DNA from: Naegleria gruberi
Taxonomy: Eukaryota
Strand: one strand, 5' to 3'
Length of the DNA stretch: 64,000 nt
NCBI GenBank assembly: GCA_000004985.1
Contig: GG738929.1
A program made the translations under genes and the position numbers. Positions 2,618 to 7,972 of this stretch are shown piece after piece. The notes under the pieces are model-generated. The model did no database searches. It saw only the letters and a list, made by a program, of their open reading frames with translations, and was not told the DNA's origin. Every line of letters starts with the position of its first letter. Positions within the stretch are counted from its first letter, which is position 1.

Positions 2618-4254
2618 ATGAAATATTCGAAACAACAGTCAACTCGCACAGTTGTAGGCTTGATTGTCCTTGTACTGATGTTGTGTTCTTGCTGCTGGTT
2701 GGTTGTTGCCAATTCTACTACACAACAACAACAACAACTAGAAAATTCCATAACCAAACACGATTTGAAACTCTTGAAAATCTTGGCCAAGTTGTCAAGA
2801 GGAAAATTAATGAAGGAATTGGGTGAAAAGTTTACTCACGACAATACTATTCTTGCTGGTAAGTGTTTTTATTAGAGTTGTGGATGTTTAATTTATATAT
2901 AATATTTTGTAAAGATTATAATTTTGTCAATGGAATGAAAGATATTCTTCCACATATGAAAGTAATCATCAAGACTGTTGTTGTTGGAAGTAACATGACA
3001 GAACCAATGGTTGTTAAGGAACAAAGAAAGGAATTTAATGGTGAAATGAAAAAGTATTTGCCAGAGATTTTTGGTAAATTCAAGAATGTTTTTGGAAACT
3101 TTGTAAAGGATTTGAGTTCTGACATTAATTTTACAATGCCAGAAAAATCATTGTGGAAACAATTTTTGAAAATTTCCAGAAGAGCTCACAAGCAATTTGT
3201 TAAAGGAAAGTGGAATCATTCTGTAAAAGAAGTCAATAATAAGGATGCTCTCTACTGGAGACAAGTTAAGGATATGATGAAGCAATTCAAAACATCAAAC
3301 GAAACTAATGTTCCAAAGAAATCATCTTCTCAACAAGAATTTAAAACAGTCGATGAAAAACAATACTGGAAAGATGTTTTGAAAATGATCAAGGAATTAA
3401 AGAAAGATTCCAAGCAACCTGTTGATGCCAAGAAGGAAGAAGACAGAAAGTATTGGAGACAAGTTAAGGGCATGATGAAGGAATTCAGAAAACCACAAGA
3501 TAACAAAAAGGAAGAAGACAAAAAGTACTGGAGACAAGTATCTTCTCTTATCAAATCATTTGGTAAAGATCGTATGAAGAAACCTTATGGTTTAGTTGAT
3601 GAAAAGAAAGAATCTGATCGTACATATTGGATCAACGTAAAGAGGATGATTAAAGAAAACTTTGAATCTCCAAAGAAAGAAACCTCTCCAAAAGATGTTG
3701 CTTACTGGCGTGATGTTCACAAGATGATCAAGGACGTCTCCATCAAGAAGAAATTGGATCAAGATCGTGAGTTTATTTCCAAGCCATTGGAAAGAAAATT
3801 GAGAAAGTGGTCACCATCTCACAGAGTTCTCAACAAAAAGCTCAGAAAAGAAATGAAACCAGCTCTCAAGATGATCACTTTAATCTCCTTCCAATCATCT
3901 GGTAATTCCACAAAGGAAATTTCAAAGAATTTGAAGCAAGTATTGTACAATGTAGTTCCATACCTCAAGGAACATGCCAAGAAGGGTGGAAAATTGAACA
4001 TTTTACAAGTAACACCCCTCATCAAGGAAGGTGTTAAGGATATGATAATCAGAGATACCAAATTAATGGGAAGCACCTTTAGAAAGAATATGTGGAATTT
4101 AATAACAAAGCTCAACAAACACATCTTTGAGAATCCAACCTCTTTCAAAATGGAGGGATTAAAGTTGCCATTCAGCATGTTGAAGAAGATGAATAAGACA
4201 ATCAAATCTATTAGAAAGATTGACGATTTTGATATGCTTGCTGATTCTCTTTAG
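2618..4254 (+). CDS. Predicted secreted lysine-rich tandem-repeat protein. Exons are 2618..2858 and 2915..4254.
   Basis: The ATG at 2618 is followed by a hydrophobic, signal-peptide-like stretch (VVGLIVLVLMLCSCCWLVVANS). A GTAAGT donor at 2859 and a TTTGTAAAG acceptor at 2914 join the two track ORFs in frame. The product carries six copies of the motif xYW(R/K)(Q/D)V..M(M/I)K.(F/L), spaced about 25 aa apart in a K/E-rich background. Confidence 0.6.
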
Positions 4255-4344: not shown

Positions 4345-4417
4345 ACTCCCCCTGGTGGGCTCGAACCACCGACCTGCAGATTAACAGTCTGACGCTCTAC
4401 CGACTGAGCTAAGGGGG
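4345..4417 (-). tRNA. tRNA-Asn (anticodon GUU)
   Basis: The 73-nt cloverleaf has a 7-bp acceptor stem (TCCCCCT/AGGGGGA) and a D-arm GCTC/GAGC. The anticodon loop CTGTTAA carries U33 and A37. The T-arm is GGTGG-TTCGAGC-CCACC. There is no intron. Confidence 0.85.
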
Positions 4418-4532
4418 ATTACATGTACTAAGAATGGTTTCCACTAATATACAGACAAACGTCACTTTAATCAAATTTGTTAAATTTATTGTGGGAACAT
4501 TTACTGAACTCTGATTACAAAATTGAAAAAAA

Positions 4533-4994
4533 ATGTCAATATTCAATTTGCACCCTCTTAGTTTGCTCCCTGTTTTATATCATCTATTGCCGTTCATGAA
4601 TGATAGGAGCATACACAGACTTGCACAATGTTCCTCCGATTGTCATGAATCTATTCGCAATATTAAAAGACGAGAATTGTATTATTTAATTGATGAAGGA
4701 AATAAATTGGTAGGTGATCCGATGATAATAAGAAGTATCGATCAAGTGGAGTGTATCAATGATCCTGAAAGTATTCGAATTTCTGCAATGATTGATAGGA
4801 GAGAGGCAGAATTGTCAATTATATTTCCATCGTATGTGAAGGATTTTTTGCAAATTTGTGGAGATTTGGATTGTAGATCGAGATGGGATGATTTTTATCT
4901 TCATCCATCTAATATGATGCTTCCTTTTGAGGATTGGGAGTTTGTTTCAAATTCTCCATTAAAAACCAAGAAAGTGGATCAATCAACATTTTGA
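4533..4994 (+). CDS. Hypothetical protein with an N-terminal F-box-like motif. It may be the 5' part of the next gene.
   Basis: A real ATG at 4533 opens a 153-aa ORF. LSLLPVLYHLLPFMNDRSIHRLAQCS loosely resembles an F-box. No splice joins it in frame to the ORF starting at 5014. Confidence 0.35.
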   Translation: MSIFNLHPLSLLPVLYHLLPFMNDRSIHRLAQCSSDCHESIRNIKRRELYYLIDEGNKLVGDPMIIRSIDQVECINDPESIRISAMIDRREAELSIIFPSYVKDFLQICGDLDCRSRWDDFYLHPSNMMLPFEDWEFVSNSPLKTKKVDQSTF

Positions 4995-5040
4995 AAGGTG
5001 GCAACGAGAAAAATTGCTAGTGATTGGGTATTTAAAAACA

Positions 5041-6360
5041 ATGAGGGCATGTTTGGTGTTGGAAACTGTGACAGGTGTTTTGTACTGTTTTAAATTTAAT
5101 AACTTTACCAAATTACTGAACTTTACCAATTGGTATAAATCATTCCCAACACAAATAGGGAGTAAATTAAGGAAGAGAATTGATAAATTCAAAGAGGAAC
5201 AAATTTTAGAGACAAAATATACAAACAACACACCAATTGTATCAACAGGAAAATATAGATACCTGTCAATGGAAAGGAAAAAGGACCACAATATAATTCA
5301 TAATGTAATGCAATCAGGTTATATTGAAAATAGCCTTCCTTTTGAATATAGAGATAATCCAGATTTCATGTTAGAGTATATAAGGAGAAATGTTGCTGCT
5401 TTTCTTATATGTTCAAAAAGACTTAAATTTGATCCTAGTTTTGTAGAGAGAGCTAATGAAATTGATTTCTGCATGGCATATATTAATGATTCTAGAAATT
5501 GGAATAATACTATGAGATTTAAATATGGCAAGGTTGTAAATATAGTGGATGATTTTCTTGTAAAATATGTAGAAGGAAGACAGATAGTTCAAGTTAATAA
5601 TAATTACAACAAGAAGGAAAATGAATCACCACCTCCAATTAATGGAAATCCACTAATTGCCAATCATAAACCAGCCATGGTAAGAGTGAAAGAAAATGGA
5701 CTCTACTTAAAGTATTGCACCGAGGAATTAACATCCAATAGAGACATTGTATTTACAGCAGTTCAAAATAATGGAATGGCTCTCTCTTTTGCTCATGTAA
5801 AATTCAGAGAGGATGTTGAGATAGTTAGAGAAGCCCTTTTCAATAATCCATATTCTATTCGATTAATTTCTACATCATTTCTTGACAATAATGAAGAAAT
5901 TATTCTAAATTTTATGGCTAGAAACTTGTGCAACTTTGAATACTTAATTCCTTCCAAGTATACTTCAAATTTCGACCTGATGAGAAAGGCCATTATTCTC
6001 AATCCTCACAATTATTCAAGAACATATCCACCCTCAATAACTCTTTCACTTAATAATGAAAAAATTAAGACACTAAGACACGATAAGGAATTAATAATTC
6101 CCTATATTTGGTTTAATCCAAACAAAATACCGGCATTAATGAGAAAACTCCCAATCGAATGCATCGACAGGGATGTAGTCTTGGCTGTCATACTTGCACC
6201 AAACAATTTCAACTGTTTAGACAAATCATCTGATTTTATATTGAGGAGAAAGATGAAGTATAAAGAGATTTTAGATATTAAATACAAGTTCTCCACCAAT
6301 ATACTCATCAACTCAATCTCAATATCAACAATGAAATCAACCTCAATTAATCAAGTTTAA
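5041..6360 (+). CDS. DUF4116-like repeat protein
   Basis: The first ATG of the long ORF is at 5041. Its repeated units (NRDIVFTAVQNNGMALSFAHVKFREDVEIVREALFNNPYSIRLI...) match the repeat style of the gene at 50328..52301. Confidence 0.5.
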   Translation: MRACLVLETVTGVLYCFKFNNFTKLLNFTNWYKSFPTQIGSKLRKRIDKFKEEQILETKYTNNTPIVSTGKYRYLSMERKKDHNIIHNVMQSGYIENSLPFEYRDNPDFMLEYIRRNVAAFLICSKRLKFDPSFVERANEIDFCMAYINDSRNWNNTMRFKYGKVVNIVDDFLVKYVEGRQIVQVNNNYNKKENESPPPINGNPLIANHKPAMVRVKENGLYLKYCTEELTSNRDIVFTAVQNNGMALSFAHVKFREDVEIVREALFNNPYSIRLISTSFLDNNEEIILNFMARNLCNFEYLIPSKYTSNFDLMRKAIILNPHNYSRTYPPSITLSLNNEKIKTLRHDKELIIPYIWFNPNKIPALMRKLPIECIDRDVVLAVILAPNNFNCLDKSSDFILRRKMKYKEILDIKYKFSTNILINSISISTMKSTSINQV

Positions 6361-6505
6361 CCTTAAAAAAGAATGGCACTTTTAGGAGTATTGTTAAATT
6401 GGCTTTTCACTACCATGATAAATATTACTACACAATGTAAATTTCACAATTTACCAATTTATTTGATATTATTATTAAATTTACCCTCATTACAATCTCT
6501 CAAAA

Positions 6506-7972
6506 ATGTCGTCACTCGATTTAGCAGAGGATTTTACTCTCCAACCATCAACGATGCTGCTAGTAGTCGACAAGTACATGTTTTGTCATATCATTTCCTT
6601 CATGCCCTATTTCTATCAATCAAAATTTAAGCGATTAAACAAGTATACCTTAAAGTGGATCGAGTACAATCAAAAGTATTTACTCATTCAGAGGATATTA
6701 AAGTTCACTTCATCAGAGGAGATGAAGAAGAAACATCCCGATTATTATGAACATATTGTAAAGGATTCAAATAGAGTTCTTTTGGAATTGGATGATTTGA
6801 AACATGTGGAGAGGGAGGATTTTGTTAAATGTGATTTATTTTCAATTATGGAAGATCCAGAGAAATTATTGGAATTTATCAAACAATTTTATTATCTAAA
6901 TGATAAGAGATGGCTATTGTATTGGAATAATGTTGGAGATGCATATTTCTCTCAGAAAACAATCTATGATACTGACATGTTGTTTGATAGAAAGTATGAG
7001 GAAGCATTTCAGTTGGAAGGAAATGTAACAATGTTGGATGAGCAAATTGCCAGACATTTCTTTATTAACTTGACAGTAATTGGTGTAAAAACTCTATCAG
7101 TTCCTCTTCCACAATATTTGGACACGCTGTACATGGTAGGGATAGCTGGCGTGGAGTTCTTATTTAGTAGTTTGGAACCCTCTTCAGGAGAGCCATCAAC
7201 GTATTATCATCTGTTTCACAGGGCAATTCCATTCTTTACCAATTGTTTCACAAGTGTCAGGAAGAAGAAAGGCATTAAGAAAATTAGAAACTGTGTACCT
7301 TTAAAGACCAATATTCAATCAAGGAAACGAGCTGAAAAGTATTTGTTACAATGTGCACAGGCCCACAATGTTCATCCTTCCCTTATACCACTTGGAGAGC
7401 TTTTCGTTTATTCCATGTTTGACAAGGAAAAGAAATCTCAACTCAATTGGGAAAATGCTGTATATTTCTATGAAAAATCTATAATATCAGTTTGTGAAAA
7501 GTTGAGAAATGCAGCTGTTGGCAAGGAAATGGACATTACTCAATTTTTATTCACACCAATATTGGAAATTGCAAGAAAAACCTATCTTTCTGAAAAAAGT
7601 GAATCAAAATTTTTAACCTCACTCAATCTATTTCACCAAGACGGAACTGTAAAAGAAAATAAGGAACGATTGGAATATCTTTTAAAGTTTGTGGATCAAG
7701 AATGTTTTACTAATCTTTCTCTTCCAATTCTGGTTAGAATTCTCGATTCTGAAACCAAGTCAAAATTCCAGAAATTCTACTTACACACAACACTCCAAAT
7801 CAAGAAATTCAAATTGGAAGATTATAAACTATACAGTTGGGAGAATGATGTTATGAATACTGCTTTAACATTCATGCCCAAGAAAGAAGAGCTACCCAGA
7901 CCAGCAGAAACCAATTCACAACAAAAACCAACAAAGCAAAAGAACAAGTTCACTAAAATAAATGTAGACTAA
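6506..7972 (+). CDS. Hypothetical protein, 488 aa
   Basis: The ORF starts at an ATG and is not low-complexity. I recognise no domain. Confidence 0.45.
   Translation: MSSLDLAEDFTLQPSTMLLVVDKYMFCHIISFMPYFYQSKFKRLNKYTLKWIEYNQKYLLIQRILKFTSSEEMKKKHPDYYEHIVKDSNRVLLELDDLKHVEREDFVKCDLFSIMEDPEKLLEFIKQFYYLNDKRWLLYWNNVGDAYFSQKTIYDTDMLFDRKYEEAFQLEGNVTMLDEQIARHFFINLTVIGVKTLSVPLPQYLDTLYMVGIAGVEFLFSSLEPSSGEPSTYYHLFHRAIPFFTNCFTSVRKKKGIKKIRNCVPLKTNIQSRKRAEKYLLQCAQAHNVHPSLIPLGELFVYSMFDKEKKSQLNWENAVYFYEKSIISVCEKLRNAAVGKEMDITQFLFTPILEIARKTYLSEKSESKFLTSLNLFHQDGTVKENKERLEYLLKFVDQECFTNLSLPILVRILDSETKSKFQKFYLHTTLQIKKFKLEDYKLYSWENDVMNTALTFMPKKEELPRPAETNSQQKPTKQKNKFTKINVD

Follow-up and report, generated by a model that had tools for sequence, protein, structure and literature searches.

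Exchangeable apolipoproteins of the ApoA-I/A-IV/E type are secreted, cysteine-poor, all-helical proteins in which tandem amphipathic helices with proline-containing breaks fold on lipid surfaces. Dehydrin K-segments and the Entamoeba protein KERP1 are lysine-rich and largely disordered, and contact with membranes or surfaces is made by short conserved amphipathic segments (dehydrins) or by the whole K/E-rich helix (KERP1); KERP1 is a genus-restricted amoebal orphan, and neither dehydrins nor KERP1 are known to have signal peptides. A basic amphipathic helix, W-R anchored at its start, also occurs in plant Ca2+-ATPases, where it is calmodulin-binding and autoinhibitory (PF12515, CaATP_NAI). In multipeptide antimicrobial precursors, including magainin- and apidaecin-type polyproteins, a signal peptide is followed by several membrane-active units per chain. 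In Naegleria the pore-forming naegleriapores have been reported to come from a pre-pro-multipeptide precursor (review PMC6723116). The N. gruberi protein described here recalls the apolipoproteins in its putatively secreted, cysteine-poor build of tandem amphipathic helices, the Ca2+-ATPase helix in the character of its repeat unit, and the multipeptide precursors in its overall layout.

The gene lies on the + strand at positions 2618-4254 of the 64,000-nucleotide stretch of N. gruberi DNA that was analysed (the window), and all coordinates below refer to the same strand. By ORF and splice-site reading it has two exons, with a 1581-nt coding sequence specifying 526 aa. Exon 1 (2618..2858; 80 codons plus 1 nt) runs from the ATG at 2618 through a signal peptide or signal anchor and a poly-Q tract to the start of a conserved helical domain; the 56-nt phase 1 intron that follows (2859..2914, GTAAGT...AAAG) recurs at this position and in this phase in the orthologue of N. 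lovaniensis, and exon 2 (2915..4254) includes the stop codon at 4252-4254. After splicing, the product matches XP_002669249.1 (NAEGRDRAFT_59983) exactly, a deposited N. gruberi entry annotated as a hypothetical protein, and the preliminary description was right in joining a signal-type exon to a K-rich body. Judged by the sequence searches below, NAEGRDRAFT_59983 belongs to a protein family confined to the genus Naegleria; as now known, it is one among many lineage-specific hypothetical proteins and is already in GenBank. No paper naming the gene was found by locus tag, accession numbers or metagenome project, and NAEGRDRAFT_59983 is absent among the entries listed of one N. gruberi proteome table. 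The UniProt entry D2W320 bears the name "lipoprotein", which we consider an annotation artefact, as LMLCS|C appears to fit the prokaryotic lipobox pattern, meaningless in a eukaryote. A scan for bacterial promoters and terminators gave a shuffle-level result and is likewise irrelevant to a eukaryote.

The family is small. An exhaustive phmmer search over 1.84 billion (1.84e9) representative proteins returned three matches only, all from Naegleria, and no protein from outside the genus at E 1e-3. A word-indexed search with the single protein recovered only itself, one with a doubled 40-column repeat profile produced no candidates, probably an effect of the word filter, a three-species profile search found nothing beyond the N. 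gruberi models, and none of 306 pattern matches in a JGI metagenome scan was confirmed. Paralogues carrying the same repeat, as envisaged in the preliminary description, were not found, including within the 64-kb window by six-frame motif scan and tblastn; orthologues in two further species of the genus make up all the relatives found. These are N. lovaniensis C9374_005679 (XP_044547566.1) and the degraded N. fowleri locus FDP41_005565, true orthologues at 33-40 % identity that adjoin Seh1 as in N. gruberi and have the intron position and the signal-domain-repeat architecture in common with it, all three copies being annotated merely as hypothetical. The N. lovaniensis gene is intact and syntenic, with 7-8 repeats (seven among the 13 units compared below), with linkers rich in S/T/N where those of N. 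gruberi are rich in K/E, and without the ~150-aa C-terminal extension of N. gruberi. In N. fowleri the exon 1 (signal) ORF has been lost and the copy carries a +1 frameshift, a 39-nt deletion and a TAA stop. The dN/dS ratio between N. lovaniensis and N. fowleri is 0.30.

Residues 1-31 (2618..2710; MKYSKQQSTR-TVVGLIVLVLMLCSCCWLVVA) consist of a basic n-region and a hydrophobic core, a layout repeated in N. lovaniensis, and are read as a signal peptide or type II signal anchor. The protein has a single strongly hydrophobic segment, aa 12-30, the best 19-mer of which sums to -3.8 on the Hessa scale vs +10.6 for the next, and neither intact orthologue has a second transmembrane segment. Candidate cleavage sites with small residues occur in N. 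lovaniensis (AMA|G and VLA|DS) as in N. gruberi (CSC|C and VVA|NS). The product probably enters the secretory pathway, as the features of both orthologues make plausible, and to this extent the earlier claim of a secreted protein stands; the full hydrophobic stretch of 19-21 residues fits an uncleaved type II anchor as well as a cleaved signal peptide. The charge on the N-side of this segment is +3/+2, with neutral or acidic residues on the far side, and this distribution predicts an N-in/C-out topology that would place the repeats in the lumen or at the cell exterior. An N-x-S/T sequon at around aa 102-110 lies in the same loop in all three Naegleria species, and the linkers between the repeats are S/T/P-rich. 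A GPI anchor or ER retention was considered and dropped, the C-termini ...MLADSL and ...DLIVK being neither hydrophobic nor K/HDEL.

The protein is strongly basic, with 17.9 % lysine and a pI of 9.97 over the 526 aa (the intact N. lovaniensis orthologue likewise has pI 10), and after the signal it holds no cysteine in N. gruberi and one in N. lovaniensis. Three-species alignment delimits a conserved N-terminal helical domain of ~130 aa that spans the intron (aa 46-176, 2753..3201), with the blocks LPH.K.II and SEKDLWKxFLKxxxRAHKxxVKxGKxN; the latter holds a degenerate repeat, here numbered 0 (LWKQFLKI, aa 160, 3151-3186). Six YW repeats follow, with their cores at aa 194-205 (repeat 1, YWRQVKDMMKQF, 3253..3288), aa 231-242 (repeat 2, YWKDVLKMIKEL, 3364..3399), aa 260-271 (repeat 3, YWRQVKGMMKEF, 3451..3486), aa 285-296 (repeat 4, YWRQVSSLIKSF, 3526..3561), aa 318-330 (repeat 5, YWINVKRMIKENF, 3625..3663) and aa 344-355 (repeat 6, YWRDVHKMIKDV, 3703..3738). 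The chain ends in a K-rich extension that is mostly N. gruberi-specific by alignment (aa 356-526, 3739..4251), with helices predicted at low confidence. It contains decayed repeat remnants, namely KW-SPSH-RVLNKKLRK, NMWNLITKLNKHIF and GVKDMIIRD, the last a direct repeat with 14 nt identical to repeat 1, and N. gruberi and N. lovaniensis have the tail KLPxx(L/M)(W/L)KK...D.L.D in common.

The six repeats are real, as had been proposed: the pattern YW[RKI].[VI]..[ML][MIVT]K occurs six times in the protein, and at least one copy arose in only 1 of 20,000 residue shuffles, while YW dipeptides number 6 against 0.25 expected from 12 Tyr and 11 Trp. The motifs are spaced 37, 29, 25, 33 and 26 aa apart, so that the "about 25 aa" of the preliminary description holds as a minimum and not as a typical value. 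Each unit spans ~16 residues, D/N-x-x-Y-W-R/K-x-V/I-x-x-M/L-M/I-K-E/D/Q-F(-G). The copies are 64-82 % identical at the DNA level and Tandem Repeats Finder reported no array there, and the repeats are therefore old rather than recent. Between species they are one-to-one orthologous, N. gruberi repeats 2 to 6 corresponding to N. lovaniensis repeats 1 to 5 and N. gruberi repeat 1 being without counterpart, and repeat 4 has 11 of 15 residues identical to its partner. Identity reaches 52 % in the repeat cores vs 33-37 % overall, and the linkers cannot be aligned. Spacing is nonetheless kept within 2 aa (29/25/33/26 aa in N. gruberi vs 27/27/34/27 aa in N. lovaniensis), in arrays of six and 7-8 units, respectively.

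From its sequence, each YW unit reads as one autonomous amphipathic alpha-helix, with D/N as N-cap three residues before the Tyr and often a Gly as C-cap. Y, W, V, M, I/M and F form the hydrophobic face, the polar face is centred on the conserved residues Arg3 and Lys10, and the linkers between units are flexible, poorly conserved and S/T/P/K-rich. The hydrophobic moments of the repeat cores lie at 0.64-0.84, with outliers of 0.46 and 0.52, whereas the mean over the protein is 0.38 (SD 0.18-0.21). HeliQuest-type discrimination factors, for which the thresholds are 0.68 and 1.34, lie at 0.95-1.94 in 12 of the 13 units of the two species, and in the 14-residue windows used for this factor net charge is +1 to +4, again in 12 of 13, one N. 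lovaniensis unit being neutral; an amphipathic helix is a generic feature, however, and such scores cannot separate lipid binding from protein-protein packing. AF2 models gave a mean pLDDT of 44 both without and with a 3-sequence alignment, with moderate confidence (pLDDT 60-83) only for aa 46-176. Compared with the apolipoproteins (PF01442), to which there is no sequence or Pfam match, the YW helices are irregularly spaced at 23-37 aa with long disordered linkers and do not form contiguous 11/22-mers, and a helical-wheel reading of the motif puts their basic residues at the centre of the polar face and not at its edges. The dehydrin/LEA comparison likewise yields no Pfam match (PF00257) and no homology in the exhaustive search at E 1e-3, and differs in that the YW protein has a signal-type N-terminus. 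The preliminary description had recognised no family, which agrees with the searches by Pfam, PDB sequence and Foldseek, none of which returned a match above threshold. Two further motif types were set aside. An LIR/Atg8-binding motif (W-x-x-V after acidic residues) would leave the conserved M-I-K-E-F part unexplained, and LIR binding is cytosolic and involves an extended conformation; WH2 and tau-type cytoskeletal repeats have LKKV or PGGG signatures that are lacking here, and belong to the wrong compartment.

The reading that we favour, at a probability of just under 0.4, is that of a multivalent protein that binds anionic membranes or surfaces within the lumen of the secretory pathway or phagosome. 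The chain would be translocated into the ER and then either released or retained by an uncleaved N-terminal anchor, its body facing the lumen or exterior. Each YW helix would be disordered in solution and fold upon contact with an anionic interface, where Tyr and Trp would come to lie while Arg and Lys reach out to phosphates or acidic sugars. With six to eight such weak binders, one chain would coat or bridge anionic membranes or surfaces multivalently and with high avidity. For a bacterivorous amoeba the likeliest targets would be the envelopes of its prey, in the phagosome or the medium, or its own luminal or outer membrane surface. Several properties count against membrane binding. The hydrophobic arc is narrow (about 120 degrees), and summed Wimley-White interfacial energies are mostly unfavourable at -0.95 to +3.4 kcal/mol, as calculated before helix-folding and electrostatic terms; the neutral N. 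lovaniensis unit also speaks against it. The conservation of R3, K10 and E/D11, together with that of the linker lengths, goes beyond what non-specific binding needs and is more in keeping with a specific protein partner or a packed fold.

A specific partner is the less probable yet still credible alternative, in which the Trp-anchored hydrophobic face of each unit would insert into a groove of that partner and the protein would act as a scaffold or ligand clustering six to eight partner copies, by analogy with the Trp-anchored target helices that bind calmodulin-like proteins. It draws on the invariance of Y, W and K10 and the near-invariance of R3 and E/D11, both on the polar face, across 13 units of two deeply diverged species, and on the one-to-one retention of individual repeats at spacings within 2 aa. 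PF12515 is also the only Pfam model to come near, with E-values of 3.4e-4 and 1.7e-4 and essentially one repeat involved. Its scores of 20.5 bits (full protein) and 21.5 bits (repeat fragment) are below the gathering threshold of 25, however, and no match was obtained in the N. lovaniensis orthologue or in the fragment with repeats 1-2. Anchor spacing deviates from that of the Ca2+-ATPase helix in 11 of the 13 repeats: the calmodulin patterns 1-8-14 and 1-5-8-14 fit one of six repeats in N. gruberi and one of seven in N. lovaniensis, and 1-5-10 and IQ fit none. The predicted topology would moreover place the repeats in the lumen or outside, a non-cytosolic compartment from which calmodulin is absent. 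The same conserved spacing, kept despite diverged linker sequences, could reflect a folded helical-repeat domain, compact or solenoid-like, in which YW helices pack side by side and the motif is conserved for its core and not for a ligand. Degenerate repeat 0 sits within the better-predicted N-terminal helical domain, and repeat-profile matches in the PDB (E 1e-3 to 2e-2) involve only helix-loop-helix junctions of designed four-helix bundles, ...IKEVEKNPEDMEYWNKI..., both of which are consistent with packing. Such a domain nevertheless seems unlikely, as the helices are merely ~14 residues long and the linkers, of 8-22 residues, are low-complexity K/E/S/T/P sequence with 12 % hydrophobic residues, unalignable between species, and as repeat number varies (6 vs 7-8). 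AF2 drew the repeats as isolated helices, with pLDDT values of 30-40 and no packed arrangement, from an alignment of 3 sequences only, and with this low-confidence model Foldseek found nothing in the PDB with E below 0.4 (best 0.47). When the full protein, its orthologue and fragments of the repeat region were scanned against Pfam, all matches were sub-threshold; PDB sequence searches with the single protein and the three-species profile gave nothing, and none of the known alpha-helical repeat families (TPR, HEAT, Sel1, ARM, spectrin) matched by Pfam, PDB profile or Foldseek.

The naegleriapores offer a same-genus precedent (PMC6723116) for a still less probable reading, a precursor that would be cleaved in the secretory or lysosomal pathway into six to eight cationic amphipathic peptides, each 13-16 residues long and antimicrobial or lytic in action. 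The units are indeed cationic and amphipathic, and they carry Trp at position 2, which is also its place in cecropin-type helices. The mature N. gruberi protein is free of cysteines, a point in favour of this reading and at the same time a difference from the naegleriapores, which are saposin-like with six cysteines (the N. lovaniensis protein has one after the signal); no SapB Pfam match was found. A conserved processing site is missing: dibasic sequences flank only 1 of the 13 units on both sides and are all but missing between the N. lovaniensis repeats, and the D/N helix cap is the only conserved flank motif around the 13 units. Core net charge, at 0 to +3, is low for stand-alone antimicrobial peptides, and cleavage would explain neither why a large N-terminal domain is conserved nor why the linker lengths are. 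Very improbable, finally, is the initial proposal of a secreted effector, adhesin or nucleic-acid-binding factor directed by a fungus-like organism toward a host or symbiont. A signal-type N-terminus, repeats, high pI and orphan status are common to many effectors. The source, however, is N. gruberi, a free-living, bacterivorous heterolobosean amoeboflagellate and no fungus-like organism, so that the idea of an effector acting in a host or symbiosis setting falls away. Pfam and PDB searches found no nucleic-acid-binding or adhesin domain, nothing but positive charge points to nucleic acids, and it is the sole human-pathogenic species, N. fowleri, that has the degraded copy, the non-pathogens keeping the gene intact.

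The practical value of these results lies mainly in a corrected annotation, for a protein to which the labels fungal, effector and "lipoprotein" do not apply. The presence of an intact gene in N. gruberi and N. lovaniensis and of a degraded one in N. fowleri also gives comparative studies of pathogenicity in Naegleria one small but concrete data point. A further step, which we regard as rather doubtful, would be to see in the multivalent surface binder an undescribed secreted type built on Trp-anchored amphipathic helices, which might serve bacterivorous Naegleria in binding, aggregating or permeabilising the bacteria they feed on, or form a coat on a luminal or outer membrane; loss of the protein in the exclusively pathogenic N. 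fowleri, with retention in the sister species N. lovaniensis, would then mark a change in feeding or surface biology. If the favoured binding mechanism is right, a new 16-residue repeat would be defined that is open to a family model. The known toolkit of free-living amoebae has so far comprised saposin-like pore formers, lysozymes and hydrolases, and a cysteine-free multivalent amphipathic-helix protein would join this antimicrobial and surface-binding repertoire.

The repeat gene (2618-4254, + strand) encodes an already deposited, uncharacterised orphan restricted to the genus Naegleria. An A-rich context surrounds the ATG at 2618, which opens an 85-codon ORF, and a second long ORF in a different frame runs to a stop at 4252-4254. 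Splicing across a 56-nt phase 1 intron (GTAAGT...AAAG) gives a CDS (2618-2858 + 2915-4254) of 1581 nt, whose 526-aa product is identical at every residue to the N. gruberi protein EFC36505.1 / XP_002669249.1 (UniProt D2W320; "hypothetical protein NAEGRDRAFT_59983"). The gene model of the preliminary description is therefore correct, while the fungus-like genome it supposed is that of N. gruberi, a heterolobosean amoeboflagellate and not a fungus. The G+C content of the window (33 %) and the neighboring genes for Seh1, a DUF4116 protein, Dus and MBOAT also fit N. gruberi. The gene is single copy within the window, with no paralogue; NAEGRDRAFT_75761, a 133-aa JGI model at 3856-4254, has the same sequence as the last 133 aa of the repeat ORF and is a redundant gene model.

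The six repeats first noticed in the sequence are real. YW dipeptides, of which 0.25 would be expected in this protein, lie at aa 194, 231, 260, 285, 318, and 344 and in every case lead into [RKI]x[V]xx[ML][MI]K; only 1 of 20,000 residue shuffles gave even a single match to this pattern. The spacing of 25-37 aa (mean 30) is somewhat wider than the "about 25" aa originally stated. A weaker copy, LWKQFLKISRRAHK, lies N-terminal to the array at aa 160, and decayed copies lie on its C-terminal side: KW-SPSH-RVLNKKLRK; GVKDMIIRD, identical to repeat 1 over 14 nt; and NMWNLITKLNKHIF. The repeats are old rather than recently expanded, since the units are only 64-82 % identical in DNA and Tandem Repeats Finder detected no array over them.

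The consensus of thirteen aligned units from N. gruberi and N. lovaniensis is xxDxxYWRxVxxMIKEFxxx, in which Y, W, and K10 never vary. The residue three before Y is D or N in twelve units and E in the other, and would occupy the N-cap position of the unit helix; Gly frequently follows the final Phe, at the C-cap position. On a helical wheel read from the motif, Y1, W2, V5, M8, I9, and F12 share one face of about 120 degrees, with R3 and K10 opposite, mid polar side. The hydrophobic moment averages 0.38 over the protein but is 0.64-0.84 in the 12-mer cores, except for two cores with values of 0.46 and 0.52. The cores carry a net charge of 0 to +3, and the HeliQuest-type factor is 0.95-1.94 in 12/13 units. 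From a three-sequence alignment, AF2 modeled each unit as a helix on its own (pLDDT 30-40) and a helical bundle for aa 46-176 only (pLDDT 60-83).

A word-indexed protein search returned only the same protein, with one V-to-I change, from an ENA metagenome contig (ERZ929261, k127_360077; 5.5 kb). The metagenome assembly thus includes near-identical N. gruberi DNA, in which prokaryotic gene calling had broken the gene in two at its intron. Exhaustive phmmer against 1.84 billion representatives found three proteins, all from Naegleria: an N. gruberi fragment, N. lovaniensis C9374_005679 (399 aa, E 1.5e-26), and N. fowleri FDP41_005565 (175-183 aa, E 8.7e-11). No further relatives emerged from a three-species profile search or a JGI metagenome scan. 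In all three species the gene stands head-to-head with the Seh1 gene. Here the latter (805-2142, - strand, on to about 2414) encodes a nucleoporin/GATOR2 WD40 protein with a long Ser/Asn-rich insertion (best PDB match 9hcj Seh1, E 1e-73). Downstream lie a tRNA-Asn (GTT) at 4346-4418 on the opposite strand, 92 nt 3' of the stop, and DUF4116 (PF13475) repeat ORFs at 4533-6360 (+), of which 4533-4994 and 5014-6360 may form a single gene; this gene is likewise downstream in the metagenome contig.

The N. lovaniensis orthologue shares the intron position and phase (...TIEA|D...), a signal-type N-terminus, and the conserved blocks LPHxKxII and SEKDLxKIFLKLCxRAHxWxVKNGKLN, and carries seven YW units as well as a terminal helix, LWKKIAQEV. 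Its repeats pair one-to-one with those of N. gruberi (for example YWRQVSSLIKSFG / YWRQIASLIKEFG), and identity reaches 52 % in the repeat cores against 33-37 % overall. The linkers, with 12 % hydrophobic residues, are rich in K/E/S/P in N. gruberi but in S/T/N/G in N. lovaniensis, and cannot be aligned; despite this divergence their lengths are kept within 2 aa (29/25/33/26 vs. 27/27/34/27).

The N. fowleri copy is degraded, whereas those of N. gruberi and N. lovaniensis are intact. In two independent assemblies (5480-6695 and 5480-6720 of the respective loci) the frame of exon 1 is interrupted by stop codons and lacks an ATG 5' of the conserved splice donor, and the signal-peptide coding part has therefore been deleted. 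Both also show a +1 frameshift after KAQLKS in exon 2, fusion of repeats 2 and 3 by a 39-nt deletion, and a TAT to TAA change at the Tyr of the final repeat; one strain has an additional 19-nt deletion. The public N. fowleri models of 175-183 aa are remnants. A dN/dS of 0.30 at dS 0.64 (292 codons, N. lovaniensis vs. N. fowleri) indicates constraint for most of the divergence of these species, and the decay is probably recent; alternatively, N. fowleri may still use a signal-less remnant.

Both intact orthologues contain a single strongly hydrophobic 19-mer, which is N-terminal (summed Hessa scale -3.8 and -3.1; next-best segment > +10). Positive charge precedes it (MKYSKQQSTR; MLKANSANR), with neutral or acidic residues after it, so the body is predicted to be luminal or extracellular. 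Signal peptide cleavage is plausible at AMA|G or VLA|DS in N. lovaniensis and CSC|C or VVA|NS in N. gruberi; the 19-21-residue stretch could instead be kept as a type II anchor. The absence of a K/HDEL motif and of a hydrophobic C-terminus, 0-1 Cys after the signal, a sequon that three species share in one loop, and S/T/P-rich linkers fit a non-cytosolic protein weakly. D2W320, a eukaryotic protein, is named "Lipoprotein" by UniProt, most likely an annotation artefact of the prokaryotic lipobox rule acting on LMLCS|C (2618-2710). Directly after the hydrophobic segment, an (ACA)5.7 microsatellite (2722-2738) encodes a TQQQQQ tract absent from N. lovaniensis.

The protein lies outside every described family. 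In Pfam, a single repeat came near one model, the calmodulin-binding autoinhibitory helix of plant Ca2+-ATPases, at 20.5-21.5 bits and so below the 25-bit cut-off, and the orthologue did not show this match; canonical calmodulin anchor spacings fit 1/6 and 1/7 units, and no unit has an IQ motif. PDB sequence searches were empty save for designed four-helix bundles, whose helix-loop-helix junctions the repeat profile matches, and Foldseek against the PDB gave no match below E 0.4. In architecture it resembles exchangeable apolipoproteins, dehydrin K-segment proteins, KERP1 (a lysine-rich Entamoeba orphan), and multipeptide antimicrobial precursors, but is a member of none. Naegleria reportedly makes naegleriapores from precursors of the last kind (PMC6723116).

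Our best inference from sequence is a secretory-pathway, multivalent binder of anionic membranes or surfaces. The protein would enter the secretory pathway, and its capped cationic amphipathic helices would fold on, and together bind, an anionic membrane or surface, most likely prey envelopes or the luminal/outer leaflet of the amoeba itself. Such binding does not need the conservation seen in the polar-face residues and in the linker lengths. Two other explanations, which this conservation fits better, are therefore alive: an array of motifs that dock a specific partner, or helices packed into one domain. A peptide-precursor model has no conserved processing sites to support it. The proposal of a fungal effector fails both on taxonomy and because the only pathogenic species, N. 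fowleri, is the one that has lost the gene.

Overall, the original observation is confirmed and its interpretation supported in part. On present evidence this protein is not a surprising system; its repeat is clean, conserved, and previously undescribed, and merits definition as a family.
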